Shown: piece by piece, positions 20,082 to 39,282 of the stretch
Numbering within the stretch: position 1 is the stretch's first letter
How the letters are laid out: each line of letters begins with the position of its first letter
Sequence record: OP172791
DNA: 64,000 nt
Reading direction: 5' to 3' (one strand)
From: Escherichia phage ECO340P1
The notes under the pieces: generated by a model
What the model was told of the DNA's origin: nothing
Database searches by the model: none
What the model saw: only the letters and a program-made list of their open reading frames with translations
Made by a program: the position numbers and the translations under genes

Positions 20082-22757
20082 TTAGTCGTAATATTTCAAA
20101 CCTGTAATGAACTTCGATCCCCAATCCGCACTTGCGGCGGTGAACGTCAACATCCAAGTTGTAGCTGTACCAGTGAAGACCTCTCGTTGCACAGTACCAT
20201 CAGTGTGGTAAATGTCCACGCCAGTATGTCCATTCTTAGGAATAGTGAAGGTAACAGCACTGGTAGTGTCTCGTGCATAAGAACAAACAAATGGTGTCCC
20301 CGCCCAAACTGGATTTGTCATATCACCCATCTCAAGCTGTGGAACCCAAGCAATAAGACCTGCCGTACCATCTCCTGCGAAAGTGTCTGATCCACTTGCA
20401 TTCAAAGCTATAATCTCATAGGTTATAGATGCTTGTTTGGCAACTGTCACTTTGTGTAGAATTACACGATACCAACCGTTCCCCATATCGATTATGTTTG
20501 CATCTGCACCTGTAAATGTTCCAGCTACAAGATCATAAGTCCCTTCGTTAATCTCATCTCCTGAAGTCAATTTGAGTTTCACTTTAGTGATCCCGTCTGG
20601 CTTCAAGAATACGGATGCCGCCCAGTGCTTACCTGCTGTAATATCAGAAGCTGTATTCACTGCTGATAAAATATGTTGTCCTGAAGTTGTAGAAGGTGTT
20701 AACTTGTAAGTGTTAGCCGTAGTTCCAACCGGAGAGTTGATTGTTGATGCTGTGACTGTCAAGTTCGTCTTCAACCACGGGGAAGCTGTTGTCAAGTTAT
20801 TGTTGATAAAGATATGTGTACGGTTGGCTGCTACAACACGTCTACCTTGTGGAGTTGTACCAACATATTCTAAAGGTGCTACGGGAGCAGAACTCTCTGT
20901 AGGTACAAGGATATCTCCAGAAGCCCTGGCATAACGGTTACTCCTGTTGACCTTTACATCCGCCGGAATAGTTTCTTGCGTCAAATCATAGTCCATCACA
21001 ATGACCACAGCATTCACTGTGAGATAAGAACTATCTTCGGCAGTTACCACACCTTGATAAGTTGCTCTACAACCGATACGACAACCTCCATCAGCAACCG
21101 CTGTAATAACGCCTGTAACGGGGTCAACTGTTGCTACCGTAGGGTCATTAGAGAAATACTCAACAACCACACCAGGTAAGCTTGCTGCTCCTGTTGGCGT
21201 TATTTCTGCTACCATTGTTTGTGTTGTTCCTACATCCATCGCAGATAAGCTAGGAGTGTAAACGCTCAATGTTGAAGCATATCCTCCAGAGGTATCTGAT
21301 AAAGTTGTTCCTTCAGCGTTTAAGGCTGTCATACCTGCATCAAAACCACCTTCTGCATGGAAAGTCATTAAACCAGTAGATGATATTGTCATGTTTGCAG
21401 GGGCAGAAGAAGTGTATTTAATATTGAAAAGTTTACCTCCTTCTGGGCTAACAGAATGTGTCAACTGTTTAGTTCCACCTACAATACAAATTCCTAAAGA
21501 ATCTGTAGTTAAGCCAGTTGCCAGAATATCACCCGTAATCACGGAGCTTGCTATTGGTGTGAATTTATTATAGTTTAGACCACTATTGAACAGATACGAG
21601 GCTTTCCCATCTTTCCAAATACCGGAATAATACATATCCCCGTTATAAACGAAAAAGGTTCCTTGATAACCTAATTGGTTAGTAATATCCATATTCAGCG
21701 TATGAACGCTTGTGAGCTTGTTTATATCCCAGGAACCCACTCCTTCAGGTTTAACTGGTTTTCCCACTTGGAGTGGATCTCCGCTCGCAGAATCATACCC
21801 CAAACCTAAGTTTGCAGTGTAGTTCTTACCAATAGCCCACAAGGAATTGTTGATCCCAACGAAAAAAGAGTGGCGGCTTGGTGGAAATTTCCATGTTGAG
21901 AAACCTGCTGCAAAGGTATCCAGTTTAGTGTAGGTTGTTTCTGTATTAGACCTGACATATAAGTAGTTTACCGTGCCCGTACCACCGGAGGTATCTCCTA
22001 CAACTATTGTCTGGGAAACTGTATTGATGTAATCTTTGACATACACTGTTTCAGTAGCGGATATCGTGGCATTGACAAAAGCGGTTGTTGTGTTATTATT
22101 ACCTGCTAAACCTTTACTAGCTCCACAAACACGCAAGGTTCCCACATTGTTGACATAAGAGCATTGGTTGTAACCTGCATCAAAAGCAACTGCTGAACTT
22201 GTTATCTGACGAGGAGTAGAAACTTCGTTAGTAGTGCTTGCACCTAAACTACCTACTGTGTTTTGACCCGATCCATAAAGAACACCACTATTCATTAACC
22301 AGAGAGTATTGTTATACCCTCCTTTAACCTCTTTAAGATTGGCTAAAGAAATAGTCCCTGTTATTACAGATGGAAAGCTGGTCCAAGTAGTTACACATGC
22401 ATCCGTACCACCTGCTGCTATAGATCCTACCAACCCTGCTGTCAATCCTGAATATTGCCATCCCCCACTGTTAGTTTTAATAACAAAACAACGATCTGCG
22501 GTAAACACATCCGCTACTACAGTAGAAGCTAAGTGGAAATTATTGAATCGTGCACTACGAGTTCCATCTGCAATCTCACCAAAGAGGTTTGCGCCTTGAG
22601 TAAACAATCTACCATCATTAAGCAAAATTGCCAAACTGCTGTTAGAATTACCAGCGTTATCTGGGTAATCTAAAGTAATTACTTTTTTAACAATACCTGC
22701 TGGCAGAGGAACGACACCAGTGCTGGTCATAATAGTAAATATTGGAATTGGAAACAT
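20082..22757 (-). CDS. tail fibre / receptor-binding protein
   Basis: 891 aa, Gly/Thr/Ser/Asn-rich beta-type composition; last gene of the tail fibre block. Confidence 0.6.
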   Translation of the reverse strand: MFPIPIFTIMTSTGVVPLPAGIVKKVITLDYPDNAGNSNSSLAILLNDGRLFTQGANLFGEIADGTRSARFNNFHLASTVVADVFTADRCFVIKTNSGGWQYSGLTAGLVGSIAAGGTDACVTTWTSFPSVITGTISLANLKEVKGGYNNTLWLMNSGVLYGSGQNTVGSLGASTTNEVSTPRQITSSAVAFDAGYNQCSYVNNVGTLRVCGASKGLAGNNNTTTAFVNATISATETVYVKDYINTVSQTIVVGDTSGGTGTVNYLYVRSNTETTYTKLDTFAAGFSTWKFPPSRHSFFVGINNSLWAIGKNYTANLGLGYDSASGDPLQVGKPVKPEGVGSWDINKLTSVHTLNMDITNQLGYQGTFFVYNGDMYYSGIWKDGKASYLFNSGLNYNKFTPIASSVITGDILATGLTTDSLGICIVGGTKQLTHSVSPEGGKLFNIKYTSSAPANMTISSTGLMTFHAEGGFDAGMTALNAEGTTLSDTSGGYASTLSVYTPSLSAMDVGTTQTMVAEITPTGAASLPGVVVEYFSNDPTVATVDPVTGVITAVADGGCRIGCRATYQGVVTAEDSSYLTVNAVVIVMDYDLTQETIPADVKVNRSNRYARASGDILVPTESSAPVAPLEYVGTTPQGRRVVAANRTHIFINNNLTTASPWLKTNLTVTASTINSPVGTTANTYKLTPSTTSGQHILSAVNTASDITAGKHWAASVFLKPDGITKVKLKLTSGDEINEGTYDLVAGTFTGADANIIDMGNGWYRVILHKVTVAKQASITYEIIALNASGSDTFAGDGTAGLIAWVPQLEMGDMTNPVWAGTPFVCSYARDTTSAVTFTIPKNGHTGVDIYHTDGTVQREVFTGTATTWMLTFTAASADWGSKFITGLKYYD

Positions 22758-22767
22758 TTAAACCCTC

Positions 22768-22795
22768 CATAAAAAGAAAGCCCCTTTCGGGGCTT
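22768..22795 (-). terminator. Rho-independent terminator after the collagen-like fibre gene
   Basis: Minus-strand hairpin AAGCCCC-gaaa-GGGGCTT followed by TTCTTTTTAT. Confidence 0.6.
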
Positions 22796-22798
22796 CTG

Positions 22799-24823
22799 TT
22801 ATCGTGTTACAACAACCATGTCCACGATATTACCCACACCAGGATACGTTAATTGCAAAATTGTTACTGCGTTAGCAGTAGTTGCTATTTCTGTATCATT
22901 CAGTGCTCCATAAGACGCATCTAGTGTAACCGTGTGTCCCGTTGTATCTTGAATCAAATAAATCATTGCTGAAAATGCTTTAGGTTTTGTAGATCCAGTG
23001 ACACCAGGCCATGCTCCAACTGTCAGAGCGTCAGTTACTGTAACAACATACATATTGGAAGTTCCAGAAGGAGTCCAAGATGCTCCAGAGTTGGCAGTAG
23101 TTGTTTCAAGTTCCATGAAACCTGCTGTAACTTTAGTTGGTGTTATAGCTTCTGTAGGATCTGATCCTGATATTTCGATCCAGTTCCCATCAGAACGACC
23201 ATACGTCAAGCCGTCTTGAGGTGCTTCTGGTATACTAGGAAGAGTTCCTATAAGTGTCCACGTAGAAGAATCTGTTTTCTTGAACACTGCTCCAGTGGTA
23301 GTATTGAAGGCGTAATCATTGATAACACCATCTCCTGCGACTGGATTAGTTGTTGCTACAAACCACTGTGCGCCGTCCTTACCGTTGGTCCCATCTGTAC
23401 CGTTGGTTCCGTTTGTTCCAGGATCACCCTTATCTCCTTTATCCCCTTTTTCACCTTTGTCGCCTTTAATACTTCCCATGTCAACAAAAGATGCGGAATT
23501 GGTGTCTTGATCGTAGGTATAGATATAAAGATTACTAGTATCTTCAGTTAAGTAGGCATCACCATAGTTATTATAAACAGGGAGAGCTTCACTGTTCGGA
23601 ACATGACCTTTAGCTGTAATTGATGTTCCTCCAAGACTGCCAACATTCATCCATTCTGTAGCATCTTGAACCCAAACATACAAATCATTATTAATTTTAT
23701 ATGCATCACCTACTTCTCCAGTAGGAGGAAGTTCAGCTTCACTGTTCAGAACCCCGATAATCTCTAAGCCTGATCCTGTTGCACCCACTGGTCCTTGTGG
23801 ACCTAGTTCACCTTGTGGACCTCGCTCTCCTTGATCACCCTTGTCTCCTTTTGGACCTTTAAGTGAGTCAATAAAATCTACTTCTGTCCCTTCATTACCA
23901 GCATCCAGCCAACTTTGATATGCAGATTTCCCTTCATCTCCATCTGTTCCATCAAGACCGTCTTTACCTGCCTCACCTTGTGGACCTTGAGGACCAACAA
24001 TATTACCCATGTTGACCCAAGCTGTCCCATTAGAGACATAAAGATTACCATTGATAGAATAAGCTTGGCTTACGTTTTCAGAGTTAGGTTGTGGTAAGTT
24101 ACTTGTAGAAGGTAAATCCCCACGATAATCAAAACCGTTGGCGTTAACACCAGGTGCTCCCTGTGGCCCTGTAGGACCAACATCACCTTTATCACCTTTT
24201 ATAGAGGTAAGAAAGTCATAAACAGATCCTGTATTACCATCTGCCAACCATACCTCATAAGCTGATTTCCCTTCTGGTCCAAGAGAAGAAATAAGTTTCC
24301 AAACAGAACCATCCCAAGCATAGATTACATCGCCTACGATATAACCGTCCCCTGCAACGTTACCTGTAGATGGTAGCTCACTAGTGCTTGCTAATGATCC
24401 TTTAATATTAAGTTGAGCACCAGTATCTCCTTTCAAAGAAGCAAGCCATTGTGCTTCTGTTCCAACAAAACCATTATCAAGTGCGATCTGATAAGCTGAT
24501 TTACCAGCTTCAGGTATTGTTTCCGACAGATCATCGATCTGTTGCTGCACTGCCGTAAACTTGGCATTGATAATTGCTATATCATCAGCGGTCCCAACAT
24601 TTTGCCATGCAAGGGAAGAAATACCACCTGTGGTGGCTGGTGTAGAGTTTGCTGGAACTACTTTAGGAAAAGTTCCTTTCCATTGGTAATAATTCCCTTC
24701 TGCTGCTAACAGCAAAACTTCACGGGAATTACGTAATGTAAAACCTGCCTCAAAACTGCGACGTTTTCGATAAGTAGCTTCTACCAGATCGGCTATCGCA
24801 CTATTAGGTCTTGTTAAATTCAT
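22799..24823 (-). CDS. tail fibre protein with collagen-like Gly-X-Y repeats
   Basis: Several runs such as GDKGDVGPTGPQGAPG and KGDKGEKGDKGDKGDPGTNGTNGTDG, interspersed with repeated GKSAY modules. Confidence 0.65.
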   Translation of the reverse strand: MNLTRPNSAIADLVEATYRKRRSFEAGFTLRNSREVLLLAAEGNYYQWKGTFPKVVPANSTPATTGGISSLAWQNVGTADDIAIINAKFTAVQQQIDDLSETIPEAGKSAYQIALDNGFVGTEAQWLASLKGDTGAQLNIKGSLASTSELPSTGNVAGDGYIVGDVIYAWDGSVWKLISSLGPEGKSAYEVWLADGNTGSVYDFLTSIKGDKGDVGPTGPQGAPGVNANGFDYRGDLPSTSNLPQPNSENVSQAYSINGNLYVSNGTAWVNMGNIVGPQGPQGEAGKDGLDGTDGDEGKSAYQSWLDAGNEGTEVDFIDSLKGPKGDKGDQGERGPQGELGPQGPVGATGSGLEIIGVLNSEAELPPTGEVGDAYKINNDLYVWVQDATEWMNVGSLGGTSITAKGHVPNSEALPVYNNYGDAYLTEDTSNLYIYTYDQDTNSASFVDMGSIKGDKGEKGDKGDKGDPGTNGTNGTDGTNGKDGAQWFVATTNPVAGDGVINDYAFNTTTGAVFKKTDSSTWTLIGTLPSIPEAPQDGLTYGRSDGNWIEISGSDPTEAITPTKVTAGFMELETTTANSGASWTPSGTSNMYVVTVTDALTVGAWPGVTGSTKPKAFSAMIYLIQDTTGHTVTLDASYGALNDTEIATTANAVTILQLTYPGVGNIVDMVVVTR

Positions 24824-24857
24824 TTATCTCTCCTATCATTAGACCATTCTATTGGAA

Positions 24858-24882
24858 GAAGAGGGGGAATCCCCCCCTCTAT
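24858..24882 (-). terminator. GC-rich hairpin after the tailspike gene
   Basis: AGAGGGGG / CCCCCTCT stem; weak T-tract. Confidence 0.45.
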
Positions 24883-24886
24883 TCCA

Positions 24887-27800
24887 TTAGGTTGTTGGCA
24901 CATCTACTACTGGCGTTGGGCGAATAACTGCAGTATTACCTACAGAAACATTACTGGAATCATTAGGTATGGTTTTAATTCTAACTCCAGCACTTGTAGG
25001 CGTTACAATTGGATCTGCAATGTCTATTTTAACTGGGTTAGTCCACGTATCATTATCTTGATAAGGTGCACGAGTAATAACTGTGTCCAAATCTGCTCCA
25101 CCTACGCCAGCACCAGGAATACGGATACGTGTCCCTGCTGACAGAGGGTAATGATACAACCAAGAAGCATTTGTTGCTGTCCCGTTAGGAGTCAAGTTCT
25201 GTGTCAGGAAGGTATCTCCTGCCTGTGTAGCTCGAATACCGAAAGCTGGGATATCTGGAATATATGCCCCACTTGTTGTTACAAGGAAGAACGTATTATC
25301 CGCCTTGACTATCATATCACCTTTGTCAAACTCTTTCCCTGTTGGGAAATGCATTCCATCAATGTTTCGACTAGGATTAGGCTCTAAGTAATAAACTTTG
25401 CCCGTTGTCCCTACAATAGCTCCAATACCACCTGCGATATTGGTATACATATTAGCTTCAACATTACAGTTGACACGATGAATATCCGAGTAACGGCAAC
25501 GGCTCCACTGTGGACGACCAGTAACCATCGTCTTGCCATCTGGGTAACAGTTTACGTTAACCATTTCAAGAACAGATTTTTCTCTACGGAAGAATCCATC
25601 ATAAAATGTCCCTGGACCAGATTCAGGTTGACCAACACAATCGAAGATATTACAGGTGATGTTAGACATTGAAAGCCAAGAAGCTATACCGAACAACTGC
25701 AATGCAGCGCAACGAATATTTTCAAAGCTAACTCTGTTTTCATAACCTGGCCCAGCGGAAACTCCCGCAAAAACACGCCCAGTTTTGGTGTGAATGTTAC
25801 GAACAGAATAGTTAAAACATGGATTTGAAGGTCTGCCCTGTGCCGGAACTACCGGATTACCCTCTTCGTCCAGAACTGCGTTAGTTCCCCACTCCAAATA
25901 AATCATACGGATATTACTTGCAAGTGTGCTACCGTCTGTTTTAGGCTCTCCATAAACACCGTCAATCGTAAAATCTTTACTTCCGTACATTACAACTGCG
26001 CCAGTTGCCAAACCTGTCCCAACAGATACAGTCTGATCTGGATCGCCATGAATGTTTTCGATAGAGATATTACGACCAACTTCTACGTGGACAATCTGAC
26101 GACAACGTTTTGCAAAAACGTTACGAATTGTAATATTCTTGCAATATTGATCATCAGGGATTCCGTAACCATATGGTCCTTTACCAGCTACACCGATACC
26201 GATACCCCAGTTGGACAGAGGAATAGGAGCGTTAGTCCCATCGATATTAGACAGGTAAATATTCTCAATCACACAACCATCGTCATAATGTTTATTGATG
26301 ACGTTCAGTTCTATTGCATCACCTTGCATGTCCATGAAGGTAAGGTTACGGAAGACACCACGTGTTACTGGTTCCCCTGTTCCTTGTTGAAGGATGCCAT
26401 ACAACCCGTTTTTAAAAGTACAGTTATCAATTTCAAAAGTACCTGATATTGGGTTGCCTTGGAATACCAAGCTACCAACTTGACCTGCGCGAGGAGCACC
26501 GTCCCACAAACAATCGAACATGCGCACAGCACCACCCCAATACATAACACGAGAGTTACGGAAAGTTGTGCCTTCTACTGTAGCATTTTGCACACGATAG
26601 TCGCGTTGACCACGGAACACACCCCCACGCAAAGTGATACCTTGAATATCAAAAGAGCTTGTCGTGAAAGTCATATCGCAACCGTAAGCATCGAGAATCT
26701 TGCTTTTCGAAGATTTTGCTGCTAACAGTGCCGCTTGGAAAGCTGCTTCTGGTGTGGTATAGGTAGTTGTATTGTTAGCAAATTCGGACAAGTAGACAAC
26801 ATCGAATAAATCGTTGTATGTTCCACCACGAGGGGTTAACAGTCCTTCTGTATTAGTCAGAACCCATGCATTTGGACCTAATCCTCCGCTCGTCTCCAAG
26901 GTATCGGAAGCCAAAATACTTTTTGGTAAACTTCCAGCCCAACGATAACGACCAGCGCCACGTCCAATCGTCTGATTTTTAGCTGTCAGAGTTACATTAT
27001 TACCAAAGCTTGTAGGCAAATGAACAAACTGTCCACGCTCAACAGCCAGTGCAGAAAGGTCTACAGATCCTCCAGAATAAGTCATTACTCCAGAAACAGA
27101 CAAGGATGTTAAAGTGCCTGTAATGTTAGGAGGTAATGTGTAGGAAGACTGCGCTACCGGATCATACAGAGCTTTAATCCCTGTTAACGATTGACCTGCT
27201 GTTGCGTAAGCCACCTCATCATCTAACAAACCATACTTACGAGCAATAGTTTGCAGAGGGACTTTATCCATGCTTTCTGTTAGTTCTTCCGTTTTTGTTT
27301 CTAAACTAACAAGACGGTTCTCTAGATTAGGATCTGTATCTGCTGAAGCTACGATTTTGCCAATATAAGCAAAAAGTTTGTTTGGCAGTCCTGTTGCAGG
27401 ATCGTGTCCCAAAGGTTCAGATAAGATGATCTTACTATCTTCTATACGGAAAGCTTCCCCCAGAACCTGAATAACACCATTGATCGTAACAATAGCACTA
27501 TCAAAGATGTAAGGAGGACTAATTACTGTTTCATAACCAGTTGCACCAGAATATACCCAAGGGGTGACTTCTGTTGCCAATTGTTCTGTCTTCAGTCCCC
27601 ACAATACCCAGTTGTTATCTCCTACTGGAGTCCCTTGCATAGGGATTGGGTTAACCAATGTAGCGTTAGGGGCATAGTAATAACCGCTCAATACTCCATT
27701 CTGGAAATAACGAAGTTGGTTAAAAACTGTTTCGTTTGTGCCTTGCGCCCAATCCAATGGGCTTTTAAAGAAAAAGTTGTCAACAAGGGCTTTTCTCAGG

Positions 27801-27940
27801 GTTGGTATCAACCCTGATTCTGTTTCAATACTCTCTGTAGCACTTCCATTAATAACATCATGGAGTTGGTTAGATGAGAAAATAACCAGGTCTACGCCCT
27901 GTTCGAGAGACGTTGCTGGATATGTTGGGAATGTTGCCAT
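24887..27940 (-). CDS. tailspike protein, probable right-handed beta-helix depolymerase
   Basis: 1017 aa; central region has periodic N/G/V/I-rich repeats (NITIRNV, NISIENI, NIRMIYLE) typical of parallel beta-helix tailspikes. Confidence 0.55.
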   Translation of the reverse strand: MATFPTYPATSLEQGVDLVIFSSNQLHDVINGSATESIETESGLIPTLRKALVDNFFFKSPLDWAQGTNETVFNQLRYFQNGVLSGYYYAPNATLVNPIPMQGTPVGDNNWVLWGLKTEQLATEVTPWVYSGATGYETVISPPYIFDSAIVTINGVIQVLGEAFRIEDSKIILSEPLGHDPATGLPNKLFAYIGKIVASADTDPNLENRLVSLETKTEELTESMDKVPLQTIARKYGLLDDEVAYATAGQSLTGIKALYDPVAQSSYTLPPNITGTLTSLSVSGVMTYSGGSVDLSALAVERGQFVHLPTSFGNNVTLTAKNQTIGRGAGRYRWAGSLPKSILASDTLETSGGLGPNAWVLTNTEGLLTPRGGTYNDLFDVVYLSEFANNTTTYTTPEAAFQAALLAAKSSKSKILDAYGCDMTFTTSSFDIQGITLRGGVFRGQRDYRVQNATVEGTTFRNSRVMYWGGAVRMFDCLWDGAPRAGQVGSLVFQGNPISGTFEIDNCTFKNGLYGILQQGTGEPVTRGVFRNLTFMDMQGDAIELNVINKHYDDGCVIENIYLSNIDGTNAPIPLSNWGIGIGVAGKGPYGYGIPDDQYCKNITIRNVFAKRCRQIVHVEVGRNISIENIHGDPDQTVSVGTGLATGAVVMYGSKDFTIDGVYGEPKTDGSTLASNIRMIYLEWGTNAVLDEEGNPVVPAQGRPSNPCFNYSVRNIHTKTGRVFAGVSAGPGYENRVSFENIRCAALQLFGIASWLSMSNITCNIFDCVGQPESGPGTFYDGFFRREKSVLEMVNVNCYPDGKTMVTGRPQWSRCRYSDIHRVNCNVEANMYTNIAGGIGAIVGTTGKVYYLEPNPSRNIDGMHFPTGKEFDKGDMIVKADNTFFLVTTSGAYIPDIPAFGIRATQAGDTFLTQNLTPNGTATNASWLYHYPLSAGTRIRIPGAGVGGADLDTVITRAPYQDNDTWTNPVKIDIADPIVTPTSAGVRIKTIPNDSSNVSVGNTAVIRPTPVVDVPTT

Positions 27941-27943
27941 TAA

Positions 27944-28279: not shown

Positions 28280-28288
28280 AGTGATCCC

Positions 28289-28834
28289 TTATTCTGTCGG
28301 TAATGTAGGCCAATCTATAGCGTAAGGATAGTCTTTTTGAAGCGGAACACGATTTAGTTTAACTACATAAACTTGAAGATTTTTAAGATAAGCTAATTCG
28401 TCTTCAGTAGCCATTTCTAAATCTTTAGCATACTGTAAAGGTGTTATAAGTGCTACCGCTGTTTCTTGTAAAGAGCGAATTTTTGCACTAGCTTGTGTCA
28501 TCAACTCTTCACGGGAATACTCTTTATCCTTAAGAGTTAAGGTTTCTAAATCCAGAACCTTGTTCCTAATATCCTCAAAAGTATCTATATTAAAGTCTAC
28601 TTGTGCTATAGAAAGATCTTCAGGGCAAAGTAGTGTAGGATCAGTATTCCAAAACACAATACGATTTTGATCATCAAAAACGACTTTCATTTTATCGTTA
28701 TTGAATTCTGTGCTACGTAAATCATACCAATCGTAACCTTGATCGCAACGAAGAAAAAGAATGTTCTCTGCTTCTACCAATTCTTTTAGTTCAGGGTCTT
28801 CAGGAATATATTTTTTAAAGTTTGTAAATATCAT
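28289..28834 (-). CDS. tail fibre assembly protein (Tfa family chaperone)
   Basis: C-terminal region APLQYAKDLEMATEDE...YVVKLNRV...IDWPTLP parallels the lambda Tfa C-terminus (APLQDAADLEIATKEE...LLNRV...IEWPAVP, recalled from memory). Confidence 0.8.
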   Translation of the reverse strand: MIFTNFKKYIPEDPELKELVEAENILFLRCDQGYDWYDLRSTEFNNDKMKVVFDDQNRIVFWNTDPTLLCPEDLSIAQVDFNIDTFEDIRNKVLDLETLTLKDKEYSREELMTQASAKIRSLQETAVALITPLQYAKDLEMATEDELAYLKNLQVYVVKLNRVPLQKDYPYAIDWPTLPTE

Positions 28835-30535: not shown

Positions 30536-30537
30536 TT

Positions 30538-32025
30538 TTACACTCCATACTCGTAAGAAATGTTATCAAGGTCAAAAGAAGGGACAACATTATAAGCAGG
30601 AACTATATTATTCTCTGTATATTTACTGTCATCCTCAGTATTAAGTTTAACATAAACACGAAGAGAAGTCAAGCGTCCAAAAGCAAGTGCTGCATAAATA
30701 ACACCTTTGATTTGATCGTTCGTTACTGAAGAACCTAACTCAAAGTAAGCTTGCAGGTTTTGCAAAGCTTCTACGATGTTTTGTTTTTCTGTTCCACTTA
30801 AAGTTGTTCCGTTGACAGTTTGATAAACAAGTTTTACGGAATACATAGCAGAAGCACCAGGAGAGAAGCGAATAATTTCTTGTCCTCCATCTTCTGTTGT
30901 AACTGTTATGTTAGTTGTTCCGTGTGTCAAAGTGTTGATTGGTTTGGTTTTATAGATAACATTTGCAATTTCTTCTGCACTGCCACCATAAACTATAGTC
31001 TGGAAAGTCATAGCTGGAGCATGTTCTTGATCGTGTAATGTGGGGTTATCGTAGATTTTCACTTTGGTAACACCATCTGTAAGCAGCAGTGCTTTCACAA
31101 TAGCTGCTCGTGTCCCCGCATTAGCTTCATCCACATTATCATTGAAACGAGAGCGGAATTCTGCATCTGTCTCAACATCTCGACCAGGAGAAAACGAATA
31201 GAAGTTACCACTATCAAGATAACCTGTAAAGGTAGAAGATATCCCTGTAATAGACTCCACACCCACCGGATTGTATCCTTTCTCTGCTGCAACTACCGGA
31301 ATTTCACTCCATTTGGTTCCAACTGGAACACTAGCATAAAATTTGATAGGAGTTACTAGTCCCACTGGAGTATCGCTGGTTAAAGAAGTAAAACCAATTG
31401 ACAAGTTACCAGAATCAGAAAATACAAGACTACGATCAGCTTCTGTTAAATTCGCCTTGATAAAAGTTTCAAGATCGGTTATAAATGTAGAAGAACCAGG
31501 TGCAAGTGTTTTACTGTTTAGTCCTCCATCCACCGCACTTTGTGCATAAAAAGTAATATTTGGAACACCTGTAGCAGTTGCATTAGCACGGGAGATTTGA
31601 TAAGCTGCAATCTTAGCATTCAACATAGTTGGTGTGCTAACATAGTAGTTCATATCACTATCAGAGTTGAAATAAATATCTGTGCCTAGCTCATAAGTCC
31701 AAGCTGCTTTGTTATTACTCTTAACATATGCATAACCTGTACTTGCTGCTGCACCTGCTCGATAGAAACCGCGTTTAGAAAAGATTTCATCAAGATAAAT
31801 ACCTTCTGCACCATCCAGTGTTTGAGTATTATAAACACCTTGCATACCTTCCCACAATGTGTAATCTGTGTATGCAATTATTCTAAACAGTTGTCCGATC
31901 ACAGTATCTTCCGAAGTGGCTGCATCTGCACCAAATGTGTTTTTTACTGCTGTCATGTAGTTGTTTAAAACATCGTCAAAAGTCGGGATTACAAATCCCG
32001 CATCTGTCAAACCATATTCGTCCAT
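30538..32025 (-). CDS. baseplate J-like protein
   Basis: 495 aa; N-terminal region resembles Baseplate_J family starts; position in the baseplate block. Confidence 0.5.
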   Translation of the reverse strand: MDEYGLTDAGFVIPTFDDVLNNYMTAVKNTFGADAATSEDTVIGQLFRIIAYTDYTLWEGMQGVYNTQTLDGAEGIYLDEIFSKRGFYRAGAAASTGYAYVKSNNKAAWTYELGTDIYFNSDSDMNYYVSTPTMLNAKIAAYQISRANATATGVPNITFYAQSAVDGGLNSKTLAPGSSTFITDLETFIKANLTEADRSLVFSDSGNLSIGFTSLTSDTPVGLVTPIKFYASVPVGTKWSEIPVVAAEKGYNPVGVESITGISSTFTGYLDSGNFYSFSPGRDVETDAEFRSRFNDNVDEANAGTRAAIVKALLLTDGVTKVKIYDNPTLHDQEHAPAMTFQTIVYGGSAEEIANVIYKTKPINTLTHGTTNITVTTEDGGQEIIRFSPGASAMYSVKLVYQTVNGTTLSGTEKQNIVEALQNLQAYFELGSSVTNDQIKGVIYAALAFGRLTSLRVYVKLNTEDDSKYTENNIVPAYNVVPSFDLDNISYEYGV

Positions 32026-32288: not shown

Positions 32289-32309
32289 GAGTACCTCTAA
32301 GTGAGATAT

Positions 32310-32337
32310 AAAGATTGAAATACCGCCTAAGCGGTAT
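32310..32337 (-). terminator. hairpin with T-tract just upstream of the holin-like gene
   Basis: Minus-strand ATACCGC-ttag-GCGGTAT followed by TTTCAATCTT. Confidence 0.4.
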
Positions 32338-32624
32338 TATTTACTTTCTAGGGTTGCAAGCCTTTCTTCAAGAGCTTTTAACTTTTTACGTTGATAAGCC
32401 ATCTCAATAAAAAACATTTGGTCAGCGCGGATACCCCATCGCGATCCTGCTGGAGTTATTTCGATAGTTTCTACAACATCTTCTACGATTGTTACTGGAT
32501 TACCTTACAACCTTCCCCTTCATCAAATAAAGGGATTTCTTTTTGTCCCGTAACAACACTATCGTACATAACAGGGTATTCATCATAACACAGAAAAGCA
32601 TACTTACAATCTTAGTTATTTTAT

Positions 32625-34235
32625 TTATACTATATTGATGGTCCCCGATATACTTATGGCTCTTGCTGAACCGTCAGATACATCTGTCCAGTGTGCGTAC
32701 CGAGTAGTTCCATCTATGAATGTTAATAAGAACTTAGCTGTATTATCTGACACCACCTCTAAGGAAACATCGTATAATTGTTTAGCTGAGTTTGCTGTAG
32801 CATAGTAAAATGCGTACAGGCCGCCCCTAACTGTACCTCCAAATCCAGATTTAATGCCATAAACAGGAGCTATATTTACAATTACATCACCTGTTGCTGA
32901 CGGTATAGCTGCTACTGTTGTAGCTATGGAAAAACTTAATGTGTTATACCATATTCCAGAGGTCAGAGTTTGGCTCGACATCGTTACACCATCAGCACTT
33001 GCAAGAACAGCCCCTGAATTGGGTCCAAAGGTCATTCCTGTACGCATTTTTTCAGCATATCCATAACCTGAAATGTGATTTCTGGCTATCCCTGAATTGT
33101 TTTCAAATGAAATCCATATGTCTGTTACATATTGCTCACCCGAAACCTGAAAATCTTTTATTGTCGATCTTTGAGTCGTGGTGATCATTGGTAAGGTACT
33201 TTTTGCTACTGTGTCATGTCTGGACGGTAATACAAGAATCCCATCAAGAACGCAGTCCCATGCATCACAAATTACACCAACCCCACCATTACTTCTAGAT
33301 GGTGCATTATTGGTGTTTTTCCTTACCGGAGTATCAAGAATAATATTTGAATATGTAGAAAAACCTGCGTTCTCTGTGATTACGATACCAACATTCATCT
33401 TCCCCATCACGCCTACGCGATTATCAACAGTGTTTCCCCAGGGGTGTGCTTTATCAACCACATTTGCGCTCTTATTAAACTTTAGCCCAATTGAATAACC
33501 AACTGGCGAAAGTTCACTAAACCAACTGTCAGTTGAATTACTTTCAAATCCTACAGAGTTATCAAGCCTTGTATTTGCTACAACCATCGTGAATTTGCTG
33601 GCTTTTCCTTCGTAGTTGTTCGTCTCATAGAACCCGCCATTATTAAAACCGATGATTGCCCCTCCTTCGTAAGTCCATCCGTAGCAATGGCGAACACAAA
33701 CACCTTTAGCAGAAATACCTGTTGTGTAATCCTCTGCTACTAAGAAGAGGTTATAGCAATTTGTTTTGTTAGCTTTAGTAAAGTGATGGGAACTGCTGTA
33801 TGTAGGAGTATCTGCTCCACCATCCATTATATAAGCATATTCAGCAGTTAATCCTGACTTAACTTTAGCTACAGCGTTCCATCGCACAGTTACATTCTCT
33901 TTGTGCATAATAGGAAGGGATGTAAAGAGTATGTCCTCATTGACGAATAGTGTTCCACCACCATTAGCTGACAACTCAGACATCGCGGCGTTAAAACCTT
34001 CTTCTCCGGCCCCCCATCCCCGTACATCACCTTCATCTCTCCAGCGTGACATTTGAAGTTCTGGGTACTTGGTAGCTCCAGAAATATCTTTTAACTGGGT
34101 GGCTAAAACCACCCCAGTGTCAGTAAGAAAGTTGGAAACTGTGCTTTTAACAGTCTTATCAGGTTGGTCTAAAACCAGGTAATCAGAACCATTAACTTTT
34201 GATGTTTCGGGTAAATTAGTAATTGTAGTTGACAT
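32625..34235 (-). CDS. tailspike / tail fibre protein
   Basis: 536 aa; N-terminus TITNLPETSKVNGSDYLVLDQ typical of tailspike adaptor regions; Gly/Asn/Thr-rich body. Confidence 0.55.
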   Translation of the reverse strand: MSTTITNLPETSKVNGSDYLVLDQPDKTVKSTVSNFLTDTGVVLATQLKDISGATKYPELQMSRWRDEGDVRGWGAGEEGFNAAMSELSANGGGTLFVNEDILFTSLPIMHKENVTVRWNAVAKVKSGLTAEYAYIMDGGADTPTYSSSHHFTKANKTNCYNLFLVAEDYTTGISAKGVCVRHCYGWTYEGGAIIGFNNGGFYETNNYEGKASKFTMVVANTRLDNSVGFESNSTDSWFSELSPVGYSIGLKFNKSANVVDKAHPWGNTVDNRVGVMGKMNVGIVITENAGFSTYSNIILDTPVRKNTNNAPSRSNGGVGVICDAWDCVLDGILVLPSRHDTVAKSTLPMITTTQRSTIKDFQVSGEQYVTDIWISFENNSGIARNHISGYGYAEKMRTGMTFGPNSGAVLASADGVTMSSQTLTSGIWYNTLSFSIATTVAAIPSATGDVIVNIAPVYGIKSGFGGTVRGGLYAFYYATANSAKQLYDVSLEVVSDNTAKFLLTFIDGTTRYAHWTDVSDGSARAISISGTINIV

Positions 34236-34243
34236 TTTTACTC

Positions 34244-36397
34244 CTATATATAAAATTTTTGTGTTGTTACTAAATCTTCTCCAGATTTAGTGGCTAATGT
34301 AATTCCACTTATGGTGGCAATCTCAACATTTACCTGTTTAAGAGTGATATCCTGTAAATAAACGTTCAAAGGCACGTTACCCATATAGAAAACTTGGGAT
34401 TGAGAATTAACTACCGTGATAGAATCGTGCATTATTTGAGGATAGGCCCATATATATTGTGTAAGTCCATTGAACTTATTGGCGTTCAACACTATGTTAC
34501 CTATAATCATCTTCCAAAGATATGTGCGGTAGTTTGATTCAGGATCAAAGCCATACAAAGGTGCAAGAGTAGCATCTGGAACAAAACCTGCAAGATAGTG
34601 AATATCAGAATATTCAAAACCTAATTTTTCATGTGGTATGGTAATTGCATCAAATGCTTTCATCATTTTACCTTCCAGAAGCCAGTCGTAACACTCCGAA
34701 CAGTAAAAATCAAAAGCTTCAGGAATGTAGTAATCAGACGGAAAGTTAACTTTCTCCATCAACCCGTTGCCAATAATTGATGGTAAGAATGGAAGCAATG
34801 TTACTTTAGCTCCTGGATAAGTTGCTCTAGTATCTGTTGCAAACTTTGTAACTCTTAACCCTAGTTTACGAGACAAAAATGCATAGTATTCGTCAAATGG
34901 CGTTCCTGTTTTATAATTATCTATTGTTCCTGCATCTTGTGCAAATAAGCCTGTTTCTGTATTGAATGCCAGTTTGGTAGTGTAATCATATATACAAGGC
35001 ATTTTACTTGCTGTATTATACCACCACCAAGGTTCACCAATTTGAATGACGACTGGAATATTGTTAGCTTGAGAAATAGATGCTATTTTGTTAATAACAT
35101 TTTGCAAATATTCCATACCTTCATCAATTGTTGGAGATAACACATAACTAGGCGGCTCATAACCTGTTGCTGCAAGAGCATCGTTCCAATCATGTTGAAC
35201 CCATTCTACAGGACAAACTGTGCTCATCAACTCAAAACTCAAAGAGTTCATTATTGTGTAGCCATTTTCATTAGCTATAGAATGGAAACTGTTAAGCCAA
35301 GCTTCTGTAGCCGGATTCAGGAAAACAGATCTATTCAAAGCCCAAGATGTTCCGTTCCATGAGAACTCATAATAGTGAGACATTCCGTTGTAATGGTTAA
35401 TCATTCCACGATAACCTAGTGCATATGTATTATAAATAACTCTCTCTGGAGTCAGGTTATACATATCATCATAAGATGTGCACATGCGAATATCATGTTC
35501 AGGCTGGACAAGGTTGCTGACTTTCATCATACTGTAACCAGAAGTAGGTTCAAGAAGAGTGAAAGTAAACCAAGCCTCTTGACTGGCAATAGGCACAATC
35601 TCTTCTATTTCTTCATACCTTGCTGTAATCAAAGAGAAGAAAATATTATCTACAGCACTCATATCCAAAGGAATATCATTATTAGGGCCAGAAAAGATAT
35701 TACCAAAATCTAACTTGATTGTGGCTGTTTTACCATCTTCTGAAATATCTGAAGCGTAGAATCCTAAACTGACATAATGAACACTTTTATCCAAGAGAGT
35801 TACAGTCAAAGTCGGCACCAAAGGTTCTTCTTTAAAACCTGGCATGTTTTGACTAATTTCCATTTTAAACCAAAGTTTCTCTGAACTTAAATCTGTGTGG
35901 GGTAAATACCCAACACCTTTGTGATCATATTTGTCAACTGTGCTCCAGATAACCCCTGCCAAACCTGCTGTTGTTCTGTTTACAAATCTTGCAGTAAAAG
36001 AGTCTCCATGAGATACAATAGAACAACTTTCCGTTGCTTGAGAATCTATTGTCCAATACATAGGAGAGAACATTTTAACGTCTTTTGTAGTCCAAGTTAT
36101 TGGAGTAGTATTTTCTTGGATAGTAGTTATAATACAATTGATGGTTGTTTCAACCATCATGTTATTTTGACTAATCCCTGAAACTTGGAGGGAGAAGTTA
36201 AGATCTATTGAGTTCTTTGGTCGTTCAAATACTTCAACCACAATAGTAGCAGAATCAGCATCATCAGGGAACACAAGTGTTCCCGATTTTGCAATATAAT
36301 CTCTACCAGCGACTGCTGTTCCATCAACAGTCGTGTAGTTAAATGAACTCGCATTTACTCTCTTGTCTCGCGTGACAGTAAATATAGCTTGTTTCAT
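34244..36397 (-). CDS. tail-associated protein with N-terminal Calx-beta domain
   Basis: FTVTRDKRVNASSFNYTTVDGTAVAGRDYIAKSGTLVFPDDADSATIVVEVFERP fits the Calx-beta signature. Confidence 0.55.
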   Translation of the reverse strand: MKQAIFTVTRDKRVNASSFNYTTVDGTAVAGRDYIAKSGTLVFPDDADSATIVVEVFERPKNSIDLNFSLQVSGISQNNMMVETTINCIITTIQENTTPITWTTKDVKMFSPMYWTIDSQATESCSIVSHGDSFTARFVNRTTAGLAGVIWSTVDKYDHKGVGYLPHTDLSSEKLWFKMEISQNMPGFKEEPLVPTLTVTLLDKSVHYVSLGFYASDISEDGKTATIKLDFGNIFSGPNNDIPLDMSAVDNIFFSLITARYEEIEEIVPIASQEAWFTFTLLEPTSGYSMMKVSNLVQPEHDIRMCTSYDDMYNLTPERVIYNTYALGYRGMINHYNGMSHYYEFSWNGTSWALNRSVFLNPATEAWLNSFHSIANENGYTIMNSLSFELMSTVCPVEWVQHDWNDALAATGYEPPSYVLSPTIDEGMEYLQNVINKIASISQANNIPVVIQIGEPWWWYNTASKMPCIYDYTTKLAFNTETGLFAQDAGTIDNYKTGTPFDEYYAFLSRKLGLRVTKFATDTRATYPGAKVTLLPFLPSIIGNGLMEKVNFPSDYYIPEAFDFYCSECYDWLLEGKMMKAFDAITIPHEKLGFEYSDIHYLAGFVPDATLAPLYGFDPESNYRTYLWKMIIGNIVLNANKFNGLTQYIWAYPQIMHDSITVVNSQSQVFYMGNVPLNVYLQDITLKQVNVEIATISGITLATKSGEDLVTTQKFYI

Positions 36398-36405
36398 TTT
36401 ACCCC

Positions 36406-39282
36406 TTACTCAGTAACGTCCACACTAATGTTTGCCATTGTCAAAACAGTAAGTGCAGGAATATTGCTCGAATCCAAAACAGGTAATGCATTTTGGGGAT
36501 TAAGTTTTTTGTATAAAGCATACAACCCAAAACCACGTAACAACTCTCCAGCGTGGAAGCCAAAGAAGACTCCGTTATCACTGTCTGGTCTAGGAGCGGC
36601 ACTCCAACAACCATTCATAACGTGATTAGGACCAAGAACAATATAATTTTCCTGAATAAGTTCAAAACAGCGGTCTGCTACTATTTTAATGTTAGGAATT
36701 TCTGAATCATATCCAGCCATCCCCATTATAGCACATCCCGCCATAAAGAGCGCAGACATGTGACTTGTAAAGTCATCTACAGGCGCAGCCACTTCTCCGT
36801 TAGGATAAAATATTGTTGGTGTTCTTCCTTCGTTGTTATCTTGGAACCACTTCAGATAGTTGATCCAGTTTTTACAAACTGTTAAAAGTTTTTCAGGAAC
36901 TTCTGCTCCTCGTTGTTTCAGTTCGTATACTGTATGACACGCACAGAAGAATGCTCGTGCTTCATAACCATCCCAAGCTTTATCGTTCCAATGATACATT
37001 GTGAACTCATTCTTGTTTCCGTATTTATGAGCATCCCAACGATCCCAAACATAAGCTTGTGCCATTGGCCCAGGCATTACAGGGGCAAACTTATTATAAA
37101 ACCACATTTGTGAATCATATAAAAAGTCTATACTGTTGTTCATACGAACCCAGTCAATATCTCTCCCTTTAAAACAATATAAGGATGGGTATTGATAACC
37201 TGGGTAAGGAATACCACGCCAACCGTCATATAATGCTGTATTAGGATCACTAATATTGGAAAATGGAATGATTCCTGGAGTATAATTCAAACTGTCAAGT
37301 TTGTAGTCCAGTATTGTACAATCTCCAAGTTTTGCTGTATAAGGATTTTCAGATGAAACTGTAACCCTGAAATACATTGTGTAATCATCACCAGCGGCTG
37401 AAGAATACAAAGATGGGATATCGTTAACGCAATAAAAGTCGATTGCCCCTGTCAAGCCATTTGCAGGTTCAGAATCCAATGCAATGTTGATCTGATCAAC
37501 AGCAGTCAGGTTTATTGACGAAGGTTTTGTCTCTGTGTCATCGTGATTAGGTTGCCAAGTACTTAATTTGAAATCAGCAGGACTTAAAGCTTTAGTAACC
37601 CATGCAGAATTTGTTTTTTCTAACATAGCCCACCATCTCCAACCTGCGGAATCCGTAATAGTGATGTTAAAATCATCTGCGTATGAACGATACGTAATAG
37701 ATTTTAAATTGGCTGTTTTAGTTGGTGTTAACCAAAACCCAATAGTAAAACCACCATCTGAATCCATATTAGCAGAAACTATCTGATCACTATTTGTCCC
37801 AGCAATACCAGTTGCATATTTATATTGTATCACAGTATTGCTTCCCCAGTCAACAATGATTCTAGGTTCAGCAATAATATATACACCACCTCCAGGAGGT
37901 TCAGTGCGCATAAAACTGGATAAAGGTATATCCATCTTAGTCATATTAGCTGCACCAAGAGGTAAGCCACAACGATATGTCACTGTGTCTGTTTCACTCT
38001 TAGTCTTGCTTAATTCTAACTCTGGACGGAAAAGAACACCTTCCCCTGCATCATCTACGCCTTGAAACTCAATACGTAGTTTTGAATTCTGATCCACTCT
38101 GAACCAAACTGCCTGTTGTTCTAGAGTTGTTTGTGCTGCAACATCTTGGCGAATTACTGTGTATCCTAATTCGTCACGAGAATATTTAGGTATTGCTGTA
38201 GATGGGTATGAGTAATCATAAGAAATACCATCTGTAAAAGGAATTATTGCTGTCGTAGATCTACGGAAGAATTTATCAAACATATCGATGTTTGAGTAGT
38301 CTTGACACAGCAATAAAGAAGATTGCCAGCAAAGCCAGTATTTTCTCTCTCCTGTGATCTGATACATCAAGTAGTTTGCATCACACCACCACGTTTCAGC
38401 ATCGGAAGCATTATCTTGATAACCTAACTCTACCGGAACGTTTACAGGACGGTTATGCCACATCTCATTACGTTTAAGTAGATACCCACCGTGTTCTACA
38501 GGGTTGCATGTAGCATAGTTGAATTTATAGTCACCGTTCACAGAAGCGTTTTTAAGTTGCACTGTTCCATATTCTGCAAAGCTATGACCAGTAGATAAAA
38601 TGTTACCATCCCAATCAACTTTACGTCCTAGACGGTCTATAATCCATTCAACGTCCCACTGATCTCCATATTCTTTCCAGTTGGTTGAACCATCTGGGTT
38701 AGTTGCATACACTGTTGCGTTAACAGAGTTCCAACCAAGATTACCATTGAAAGCAAACCAAGCTTTATCTAAGTATTCTCCCCAGTGTGGCGCACCTTTA
38801 GGAATAATAGTCCTTCCGTTAATCCAAGTCATCATGCTACCTTTGAACCCACCGTGCGTAGGATACCCATCATCTGTGAGAGGGTAATGTGCTAAACGTG
38901 GTTCTTTACCATTGATGATCCAGTTGGGACGATATTTAGCCGGAGGATCAGGAATAGGTTGGCCCCCGAAGAAGTGATCTATATAAGCTTGCCAATACTT
39001 CTCGGCAGATTCAAGATATTTTTTATCCCCTGTAGCCAAATATGCATAAGCAAAACCAGTGATAAGCACAGATTGACCTTCGGTAGTAGCGTCACCGTTT
39101 GGTTGCCCTTCCTGCGCTGTCCAGTTAATAAAGTGTCTGTTGTTCGCCAATACGTTTTGTGGGTTGATAATGTAATGCTGAACCGTAGGATCTATGGTAA
39201 GCCCAGTATTTCTTTCCAAAAACTGAACCAACCCTTCAATCAACTGAAACGTGTTGTCAATATTGTGCTTAACTCTTGACAT
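36406..39282 (-). CDS. large tail-associated protein with glycoside-hydrolase-like (alpha/alpha toroid) regions
   Basis: 958 aa; W/Y/G-rich segments such as GFAYAYLATGDKKYLESAEKYWQAY; fold assignment is tentative. Confidence 0.45.
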   Translation of the reverse strand: MSRVKHNIDNTFQLIEGLVQFLERNTGLTIDPTVQHYIINPQNVLANNRHFINWTAQEGQPNGDATTEGQSVLITGFAYAYLATGDKKYLESAEKYWQAYIDHFFGGQPIPDPPAKYRPNWIINGKEPRLAHYPLTDDGYPTHGGFKGSMMTWINGRTIIPKGAPHWGEYLDKAWFAFNGNLGWNSVNATVYATNPDGSTNWKEYGDQWDVEWIIDRLGRKVDWDGNILSTGHSFAEYGTVQLKNASVNGDYKFNYATCNPVEHGGYLLKRNEMWHNRPVNVPVELGYQDNASDAETWWCDANYLMYQITGERKYWLCWQSSLLLCQDYSNIDMFDKFFRRSTTAIIPFTDGISYDYSYPSTAIPKYSRDELGYTVIRQDVAAQTTLEQQAVWFRVDQNSKLRIEFQGVDDAGEGVLFRPELELSKTKSETDTVTYRCGLPLGAANMTKMDIPLSSFMRTEPPGGGVYIIAEPRIIVDWGSNTVIQYKYATGIAGTNSDQIVSANMDSDGGFTIGFWLTPTKTANLKSITYRSYADDFNITITDSAGWRWWAMLEKTNSAWVTKALSPADFKLSTWQPNHDDTETKPSSINLTAVDQINIALDSEPANGLTGAIDFYCVNDIPSLYSSAAGDDYTMYFRVTVSSENPYTAKLGDCTILDYKLDSLNYTPGIIPFSNISDPNTALYDGWRGIPYPGYQYPSLYCFKGRDIDWVRMNNSIDFLYDSQMWFYNKFAPVMPGPMAQAYVWDRWDAHKYGNKNEFTMYHWNDKAWDGYEARAFFCACHTVYELKQRGAEVPEKLLTVCKNWINYLKWFQDNNEGRTPTIFYPNGEVAAPVDDFTSHMSALFMAGCAIMGMAGYDSEIPNIKIVADRCFELIQENYIVLGPNHVMNGCWSAAPRPDSDNGVFFGFHAGELLRGFGLYALYKKLNPQNALPVLDSSNIPALTVLTMANISVDVTE

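Follow-up and report, generated by a model that had tools for sequence, protein, structure and literature searches.

A probable phi92-type multivalent adsorption module with a chimeric tailspike gene in the phAPEC8-like Escherichia phage ECO340P1

The multivalent adsorption apparatus of phage phi92 and of its rV5 and phAPEC8 relatives has been described before and can be regarded as a textbook case. Here it is compared with a locus of Escherichia phage ECO340P1 (OP172791), a group of six large genes at positions 20082-39282 of the 64,000-nucleotide stretch of DNA that was analyzed (the window). The phi92 virion carries several different fibre sets, which cryo-electron microscopy has shown (cryo-EM; PMC13450770; PMC8594841 citing Schwarzer 2012), and the fibres attach to the J/I wedge platform (PMC13450770, section 'Structure of the baseplate'). 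Fibre III is gp147 and points downward, gp143 forms the tip of fibre I at the distal end of this L-shaped fibre, and gp140 has been named as a fibre-like candidate (PMC13450770). In a passage of PMC5380687 that cites Schwarzer et al. (2012), gp141 and gp142 are given as glycosidases and gp150 as a colanidase, while gp151 is called a fibre and gp143 an endosialidase. The relatives of phi92 have been described as possessing a 'nanosized Swiss army knife' apparatus and as depending on wecB (PMC8594841, BASEL 2021), and homologous glycan-deacetylase-type spikes, together with a dependence on the wecB/NGR glycan, are reported for N4, the Vequintavirinae and the phi92-like phages (PMC8669472, mBio 2021; PMC8594841).

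Positions 20000-40000 of the window were compared with 50,697 phage records by megablast. Escherichia phage phAPEC8 matches with 97.8% DNA identity over 93% of the query, and 65 records cover at least 80% of it. The remaining 7% corresponds to a single gene, which encodes a spike of 536 amino acids (aa). Judged from its sequence, the phage belongs to the genus Phapecoctavirus, of which phAPEC8 is the type species, in the subfamily Stephanstirmvirinae. The six large open reading frames (ORFs), which a first-pass annotation had proposed as fibre or spike genes, are all present at exactly the coordinates given there and all lie on the minus strand; the shorter fibre and the Tfa chaperone named with them were found as well (Table 1). 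As each large ORF except the 536-aa one is matched by an annotated phAPEC8 protein with 99-100% identity, these are genuine genes and not chance ORFs. The GC skew reverses at about 20 kb, at the junction of the plus-strand replication genes, which include a DNA polymerase and a nucleotidyltransferase, and the minus-strand late structural module. A promoter scan returned 50 sites where 51 were expected, and thus no excess.

A phi92 gene map was built from the annotated phi92 record, tblastn and blastp. The gene order of the window is identical to that of phi92 from the central spike through the end of the module, i.e., spike, gp25-like gene, gp140-143, gp144, the J/I wedge, the short fibre and Tfa, gp149, gp150, gp151 and a terminal gene, and phAPEC8 shows the same order. 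In the gp143 slot both phages have a common N-terminal anchor, 70% identical over aa 1-112; however, the window continues with a podophage-type spike body, whereas phi92 carries its endosialidase there. The colanidase-like spike of the window is 213 aa longer than its phi92 counterpart, with an extra TSP-type N-terminal module and an enzyme domain that is only 33% identical, and where phi92 has the 202-aa gp152, the terminal gene of the window encodes a propeller/Ig/adhesin protein of 891 aa. Compared with gp086-gp098 of phAPEC8, every gene of the module but one is 99-100% identical at the protein level. The exception is the 921-aa endosialidase-type gp095, which is replaced in the window by the 536-aa chimeric spike and of which only the first ~75 and the last ~98 codons are left, the latter degraded. 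Within Phapecoctavirus as a whole, the module is 97-100% identical except at two places, the gp143 slot and the 891-aa protein's C-terminus.

We consider it very likely that the region is the late host-recognition module of a phAPEC8-like myophage and belongs with the multivalent adsorption apparatus of the phi92 type. The multi-specificity adsorption apparatus for surface polysaccharides that the first-pass annotation had suggested is supported by synteny and homology with phi92 and by the domains of the six proteins; that the apparatus is also branched we infer from adaptor domains and from phi92. All six proteins have a receptor-binding or carbohydrate-active domain, and therefore the opposite case, internal or structural proteins that lack such domains, does not apply. 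What has to be given up is the description of the arsenal as unusually large, as Stephanstirmvirinae and Vequintavirinae normally have a set of this kind. PMC12695924 lists six tail fibre genes, among them those for the 958-aa, 891-aa, 353-aa and 157-aa proteins, and in the curated record of phage PaulScherrer six proteins are annotated as lateral tail fibres, with domains of the glycosidase, deacetylase, collagen and intimin types. Since the concept is published and six fibres are annotated in curated records of relatives, the gene set of the window is a known feature. It is ordinary for this group of phages, and the only local peculiarity is the swapped spike body of the 536-aa gene.

Table 1. 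Genes and other features of the adsorption module, with positions in the window and relation to phi92.
Feature	Position	Strand	phi92 relation, protein identity and other evidence
891-aa protein ('TfpM1')	20082..22757	-	gp152 slot; match to the 202-aa gp152 limited to aa 411-587, 62%
674-aa collagen-like fibre	22799..24823	-	gp151 orthologue, 60%
1017-aa tailspike	24887..27940	-	gp150 counterpart; anchor 75%, enzyme domain 33%
111-aa protein			gp149, 76%
181-aa Tfa/gpK-type assembly chaperone	28289..28834	-	gp148 position; Pfam Caudo_TAP E=3.2e-13
353-aa short tail fibre	28835..29896	-	gp147 orthologue (fibre III), 75%
209-aa gpI-like baseplate wedge protein	29906..30535	-	gp146, 87%; Pfam DUF2612
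495-aa J-like baseplate wedge protein	30538..32025	-	gp145, 80%; Pfam Baseplate_J
87-aa protein			gp144, 83%
3' remnant of a gp095/endosialidase-type gene	32289..32624	-	blastn and blastx
536-aa chimeric tailspike	32625..34235	-	gp143 slot; 70% over aa 1-112 only
5' recombination junction of the 536-aa gene	34009..34079	-	overlap of blastn segments
717-aa protein	34244..36397	-	gp142 orthologue, 77%
958-aa protein	36406..39282	-	gp141 orthologue, 83%
157-aa small fibre-like or adaptor protein	39282..39755	-	gp140 orthologue, 83%
208-aa gp25-like sheath initiator	39755..40381	-	gp139, 73%; PHROG_120 baseplate wedge subunit 6e-20
244-aa central spike			gp138, 72%

The 536-aa protein consists of two parts of different descent. 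Its anchor, from aa 1 to about aa 52-75, is of the phAPEC8 gp095/phi92 gp143 type, and the resemblance to these proteins ends at about aa 112. The body (aa ~44-536) is 93.7% identical over residues 44-535 to the annotated tail protein of the Kayfunavirus podophage PH1061, 86% identical to a protein of phage pO91 and 67% identical to spikes of a Hafnia myophage and of a Salmonella Ackermannviridae phage (tblastn). In a large protein collection bodies of this type (65-94% identity) occur behind T7-fibre anchors (PF03906+PF18668), TSP1/Gp66 anchors (PF18668) and P22 head-binding anchors (PF09008), and altogether four anchor types precede it in other phages and prophages. Many of the carriers are E. 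coli prophages, with P22-like prophage spikes reaching 82% identity. The 536-aa spike is thus built from a modular anchor and an exchangeable body.

The same boundaries can be seen in the DNA. By blastn, positions 34009-34498 are phAPEC8-like (95.9%), 32625-34079 are PH1061-like (93.3%) and terminate exactly at the stop codon, and 32001-32622 are again phAPEC8-like (95.3%). At the 5' junction the two segments overlap by 71 nt that are common to both parental types and encode the linker GATKYPELQMSRWRDEGDVRGWG; the protein alignments agree with this position. The linker follows the conserved pattern ATKYPELQ..RWRDEGD.RGWG, and such a linker, placed where the anchor ends, is a probable recombination and horizontal gene transfer motif in spike genes of Kayfuna-, Kutter- and Justusliebigviruses (PMC10408124). 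Downstream of the new stop codon the last ~98 residues of a gp095-type protein, its C-terminal chaperone region, can still be recognized, interrupted by stops and a frameshift. This remnant is 95% identical to the 3' end of phAPEC8 gp095 in blastn, and blastx aligns aa 867-921 at 98% and, in a different frame, aa 824-863 at 83%. The apparent intergenic gap of 337 bp is therefore explained as the degraded, non-coding remnant of the displaced gene. A palindromic hairpin is located at 32319-32338, just past the old stop codon of the remnant.

Two other explanations of this gene were ruled out. The ORF is not a truncated or frameshifted endosialidase gene, as it is a complete chimera that ends at the donor-type stop codon, and the gap behind it is what is left of the old gene. 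Nor is the chimeric allele unique to this genome: a Logan contig (L011) has the same chimera with the same remnant, at 93.8% nucleotide identity to the window chimera, dropping to 72-79% around 33200-33500.

Modular O-antigen tailspikes with an anchor and an exchangeable body joined at the same linker motif are known from Kayfuna-, Kutter-, Justusliebig-, Lederberg- and Uetakeviruses (PMC10408124). In difference to these, the recipient here is a Phapecoctavirus, a genus absent from the text of that paper, the 536-aa subtype is not covered there, and a 3' remnant of the displaced gene can still be seen after the swap. Judged from the alignments, what is specific to this locus is a new combination of alleles, i.e., a Phapecoctavirus anchor with a Kayfunavirus/P22-type spike body. 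The gene is a clean natural exchange of a spike body from a podophage-type source into a large myophage, in which the two junctions and the rest of the old gene can still be made out. The chimera probably arose by recombination at the conserved linker, with a donor body circulating in Kayfunavirus, P22-like, Kuttervirus and Hafnia phages.

The position of gp143 is known to vary among relatives (PMC10269720). The slot is empty in Mt1B1_P17 and phiWec190, and SF1-1 and PaulScherrer carry other spikes in it. Because the slot is variable or empty in relatives, and is occupied by a different spike body in the window, the endosialidase is a trait of phi92 and not of the family. The body of the 536-aa spike is probably a β-helix, as suggested by its predicted structure, and is predicted to be probably specific for O-antigen. 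No catalytic motif was identified in this spike.

The 536-aa gene is the last of three large genes that lie between the gp25-like gene, their upstream border, and the J-like wedge gene. This layout is kept in phi92, rV5-type and SSE121-type phages. The first-pass annotation had described the three genes as inserted between wedge-like and J-like baseplate genes; the position is correct, but the arrangement is conserved and ancestral, and only the slot of the 536-aa gene is optional. A recent insertion of the 958-aa and 717-aa genes was ruled out, as both are present in phi92 and in rV5-type phages, and the 958-aa gene alone in SSE121-type phages.

The first-pass annotation had also counted all six proteins as fibres or spikes, which does not hold for the 958-aa protein, a predicted globular six-hairpin barrel, and for the 717-aa protein, which is N4 sheath-like. 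For the 958-aa protein no Pfam family was found at E<=0.01 and no sequence match in the PDB. An AlphaFold2 model calculated with a 32-sequence alignment is confident and compact, with a predicted local distance difference test (pLDDT) value of 85.7 and a predicted template modelling score (pTM) of 0.81. The compact globular shape indicates that the protein is not a fibre. The model forms an (α/α)6 six-hairpin barrel with helices at about aa 6-104, 293-335 and 699-926, which is interrupted by two β-sandwich insertions resembling carbohydrate-binding modules (CBMs) at about aa 120-290 and 350-660; in Foldseek these correspond to CBM11/CBM22-like β-sandwiches. Structural matches were obtained to six-hairpin (α/α)6 glycoside hydrolases of families GH8, GH76, GH105, GH88 and GH48 at no more than 14% identity. 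Unlike in these enzymes, the barrel of the 958-aa protein is split by the two large β-domain inserts, and it has no family-level sequence signature, so that at the sequence level it cannot be placed in any named glycoside hydrolase family. The glycosidase-like protein expected from the first-pass annotation is thus recovered in the predicted fold. The protein contains numerous invariant Asp, Glu, Trp and His residues, with D333, D336, E388, D750 and E913 among the acidic ones.

The distribution of the 958-aa protein is wide. It was found with 100% identity in a sequence cluster that has 478 members, and homologues with 42-55% identity occur in phages and prophages of Enterobacter, Pseudomonas, Stenotrophomonas and marine bacteria. 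Its counterpart in the Seunavirus SSE121, a Salmonella phage, is 73% identical, whereas the J protein is only 32% identical and J, I, hub and spike together range from 27 to 35%. This contrast suggests either horizontal transfer of the gene between subfamilies or an exceptional constraint on it. The protein is probably a baseplate-anchored scaffold that binds or processes glycans.

The 717-aa protein does contain the Calx-beta domain for which it had been singled out (aa 4-82, Pfam E=7.4e-11), but its bulk consists of NCTSP_N (aa 107-292, E=2.2e-16) and TIM-barrel_NCTSP (aa 299-658, E=4.6e-79), which score 60.1 and 266.4 bits, respectively, against a gathering cut-off of 27. In the PDB its sequence matches Gp64 (9lc0_M, 6e-30) and Gp65 (9lc0_I, 2e-12) of phage N4, which as a heterodimer form the receptor-binding non-contractile sheath of that phage (PMC13434306). 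Compared with the N4 sheath (PDB 9lc0, 9yf4), the 717-aa protein has the TIM-barrel region of Gp64 and the N-terminal domain of Gp65, and both groups of phages depend on the wecB/NGR glycan pathway (PMC8669472). However, here both modules are on a single polypeptide together with Calx-beta, in a contractile-tailed phage without a short-tail sheath, and for most of Gp65, a protein of 1382 aa and 10 domains, a counterpart is lacking. As its collinearity with phAPEC8 and phi92 makes this phage a myophage that has a contractile sheath of its own, a sheath role is implausible. The family name NCTSP is, on the alignments, a statement of homology and not of function. By analogy, the 717-aa protein is likely a conserved unit that binds or modifies an NGR/wecB-dependent glycan.

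Natural fusions link the 958-aa and the 717-aa protein. In a 1557-aa protein (P0096) a 958-like body (aa 13-960) is followed by a 717-like body (aa 968-1538), in the gene order of the window. It is encoded at 6691-11364 of an SU10-like podophage contig (L010, Logan SRR10874396), one gene downstream of an SU10-type adaptor gene. In another protein (P0087) a P2 gpI-type baseplate domain (Tail_P2_I) precedes a 958-like body. Since the fusion sits in an SU10-like podophage, the 958/717 module crosses tail morphotypes, from myophages to N4-like and SU10-like phages. From these fusions we infer that the two proteins may form a single baseplate-anchored complex.

A more tentative proposal, possible rather than probable, is that the two proteins build a non-fibrous heterodimeric 'arm' on the wedge, comparable to Gp64-Gp65 of N4, with the gp143-slot spike at its tip. 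If true, this arm would identify density that is open in phi92, namely the arm of the L-shaped fibre I and/or fibre II, and it would be a portable glycan-processing module common to myophages, N4-like phages and SU10-like podophages. In the 2026 cryo-EM study of phi92, gp15, gp140, gp150 and gp151 were tried for fibre II and none fitted, while gp141 and gp142 were not considered (PMC13450770). The fold and the fusions make the gp141/gp142 pair a concrete candidate for the unassigned baseplate density of phi92.

As a separate observation, the Klebsiella phage FKP3 (Justusliebigvirus) has no homologues of the 157-aa, 958-aa and 717-aa proteins, and a single 665-aa 'tail fiber protein' is encoded between its gp25-like gene and gp144. 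As FKP3 lacks all three, the gp140-142 unit is dispensable for baseplate assembly in the subfamily.

The two proteins encoded on the other side of the wedge genes, the 1017-aa tailspike and the 674-aa fibre, carry the TSP1/Gp66-type N-terminal domain (PF18668) that is typical of the branched tailspike complexes of Ackermannviridae (CBA120 TSP1-4) and of G7C (gp63.1/gp66). In the 1017-aa protein, aa 1-215 are the anchor common with gp150. It is followed at about aa 226-399 by the N-terminal module of CBA120 TSP1/3/4 and G7C gp63.1 (E 1e-24 to 1e-30), which is not present in phi92 gp150 and which includes the Pfam domain Tail_spike_N at aa 302-361 (E=2.3e-9). Residues 426-1000 match the crystal structure of phi92 gp150 (6e0v, E=1.4e-79), and the PHROG annotation is 'colanic acid degradation'. 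The beta-helix tailspikes listed in the first-pass annotation are thereby supported for the 1017-aa protein, while the case for the 536-aa protein is weak (see below). The collagen-like fibre it had named is the 674-aa protein, in which Pfam Collagen is detected with E=3e-12 (46.5 bits; cut-off 27.2) and G-X-Y triplets occur in four runs, 6, 8, 10 and 11 triplets long. Its Tail_spike_N adaptor lies at aa 12-77 (E=1.9e-19), the N-terminal part matches many spikes in the PDB, and the C-terminal tip (aa ~557-674) is related to a solved tail fibre (9cuy_g). A T4 gp10-like (XD) docking domain did not appear in the Pfam and PDB sequence searches of the six proteins, which included no search dedicated to it.

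The 891-aa protein at the end of the module starts with an RCC1-like β-propeller (aa ~1-400), followed by Big_2 Ig-like domains (~400-590) that contain the part shared with phi92 gp152. Residues 1-584 are 97-98% conserved within the genus. For the last ~300 aa no match was found in SF1-1, Mt1B1_P17 and phiWec190 (tblastn, E<=1e-5). Elsewhere a Justusliebigvirus 'lateral tail fiber protein' carries this C-terminal module (585-891) at 63% identity, and minor tail proteins of Kagunavirus and a tail protein of RcapMu carry it at 25-29%. As it is swapped within the genus and present in other phage tail proteins, the C-terminus behaves as an exchangeable adhesin tip.

Strong terminator-like hairpins on the minus strand, at 22777-22796 behind the 674-aa gene and at 20051-20078 behind the 891-aa gene, flank the latter and match annotated terminators of phAPEC8; judged by these hairpins, the gene may be expressed at another level than the rest of the module. 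In the Shigella phage SF1-1 (19794-22465) the counterpart is annotated as two overlapping coding sequences of 104 aa and 786 aa. Besides the different C-terminal module, this split could reflect a frameshift or a sequencing error.

Taken together, the module can be read as follows. The J/I wedge would bear several appendage types together, as seen by cryo-EM in phi92 and assumed here by orthology. The 353-aa short fibre, with its Tfa chaperone, would make the final contact with the cell surface, probably at the lipopolysaccharide (LPS) core. Adjoining the wedge, the 958-aa and 717-aa proteins would form a conserved non-fibrous unit that binds or processes a widely shared glycan, and this unit may serve as the arm to which the slot spike is fixed. 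The slot itself would be an optional plug-in position, where the 536-aa spike with its short conserved anchor serves strain-specific recognition, probably of O-antigen. The colanidase-like β-helix spike of 1017 aa and the 674-aa fibre could be a second set directed against exopolysaccharide, and the 891-aa propeller/Ig protein would add a third, exchangeable adhesin tip. Host range would then evolve through cassette exchange at two positions only.

A number of points weigh against parts of this reading. The AlphaFold2 model of the 536-aa spike has a moderate pLDDT of 65, with a short-strand pattern at aa 94-390, and although its top Foldseek matches are all β-helix spikes (Det7, HK620, CBA120 TSP2, K2-2; E 1e-6 to 1e-4, probability about 1), the template modelling (TM) scores are only 0.2-0.3. 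The substrate of the 1017-aa spike may or may not be colanic acid, as its enzyme domain has only 33% identity to the characterized colanidase. The 958-aa protein is at most a putative enzyme, as its identity to any glycoside hydrolase does not exceed 14% and Pfam gives no glycoside hydrolase match, and the conservation of this protein fits a scaffold or a conserved target as much as an enzyme. Residues 615-831 of the 891-aa protein are homologous to the head spike fibre of RcGTA, the gene transfer agent of Rhodobacter capsulatus (6tb9, E=5.6e-14). Finally, positions in the phi92 baseplate are themselves partly open, with fibre II unassigned and the arm of fibre I unidentified (PMC13450770).

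The alternative that survives best, although we hold it for somewhat unlikely, is that the apparatus is effectively monovalent on a given host and that most of its parts are tools to penetrate capsule, colanic acid or O-antigen and not alternative receptor-binding proteins, in which case the term multi-specificity would exaggerate how far receptors are used independently. All tested relatives need wecB and the LPS outer-core glucose in K-12, for which effective monovalence was proposed (BASEL, PMC8594841, section 13), and five of the six large proteins are nearly invariant in the genus. However, the spike of the gp143 slot is exchangeable and the 891-aa protein has a variable C-terminus, which speaks for selection by different hosts, and the host range of phi92 follows its endosialidase (PMC13450770, PMC10269720). 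In the multivalent reading, host-range variation in Phapecoctavirus is concentrated at these two positions, which are the sites to engineer, or to read for the prediction of host range.

Unlikely, in our view, is a second alternative in which the 958-aa protein and possibly also the 717-aa protein are structural scaffolds at the periphery of the baseplate with catalytically inert enzyme-like folds, so that only three or four of the six would be true receptor-binding proteins. The extreme conservation of the 958-aa protein, from phi92 and SSE121 to the Pseudomonas, Stenotrophomonas and marine phages or prophages, would fit a scaffold, as would the lack of allelic variation within the genus, the P2 gpI-type baseplate domain that is fused in front of a 958-like body, the prediction of a compact monomer instead of a trimeric fibre and the missing match to a glycoside hydrolase family. 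On the other hand, the architecture of a six-hairpin barrel that bears CBM-like inserts is typical of carbohydrate-active proteins and many Asp, Glu, Trp and His residues are invariant. Moreover, FKP3 does without the 958-aa protein, which is thus not an indispensable part of the baseplate, the 958/717 module is portable across tail types up to an SU10-like podophage, and the fusion partner of the 958-aa protein is homologous to the receptor-binding sheath of N4.

That the 891-aa RCC1/Ig protein is a decoration fibre of the capsid or neck and not part of tail adsorption is quite unlikely: its resemblance to the RcGTA head spike fibre, the frequency of Big_2 Ig-like domains in capsid decoration proteins (PHROG_215, 'structural protein with Ig domain', belongs to the head and packaging class), the location of the gene at the extreme end of the module behind a terminator-like hairpin and the absence of the large version from phi92, which has only the 202-aa Ig protein, are set against a C-terminal module shared with annotated tail and lateral tail fibre proteins of Justusliebigvirus, Kagunavirus and RcapMu and exchanged between close relatives like a receptor-binding tip, and against the contiguity of the gene with the tail fibre genes, and even on the head the protein would still be an adhesin.

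Among the smaller neighbours, the 353-aa short fibre matches a PHROG tail fibre family (9e-108) and a short tail fibre in the PDB (9cuy_c, 4.9e-23). The 157-aa protein matches the PHROG 'tail fiber protein' (2.4e-68) and has no sequence match in the PDB. For the Tfa chaperone no phi92 match was obtained by tblastn at E<=1e-5, and its correspondence to gp148 is given by gene order only.

Outside the module, the tape measure protein (43381-45366) is the most divergent conserved gene of the tail module, with 95% identity to phAPEC8 and Mt1B1_P17 and 42% to phi92, whereas the neighbouring tail genes are 99-100% identical. Near-identical genomes (about 98%) bear the record names 'Acinetobacter phage vB_AbaM_ABPW7', 'Campylobacter phage B15' (with others like it) and 'Klebsiella phage ZCKP1'. 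The hosts stated for these Phapecoctavirus records seem doubtful, or they may result from contamination or from unusual claims about the host. A cluster of 10 tRNA genes is encoded on the minus strand at 59060-60982, comprising two for Met and one each for Ile, Pro, Gln, Gly, Thr, Asn, Ser and Arg.

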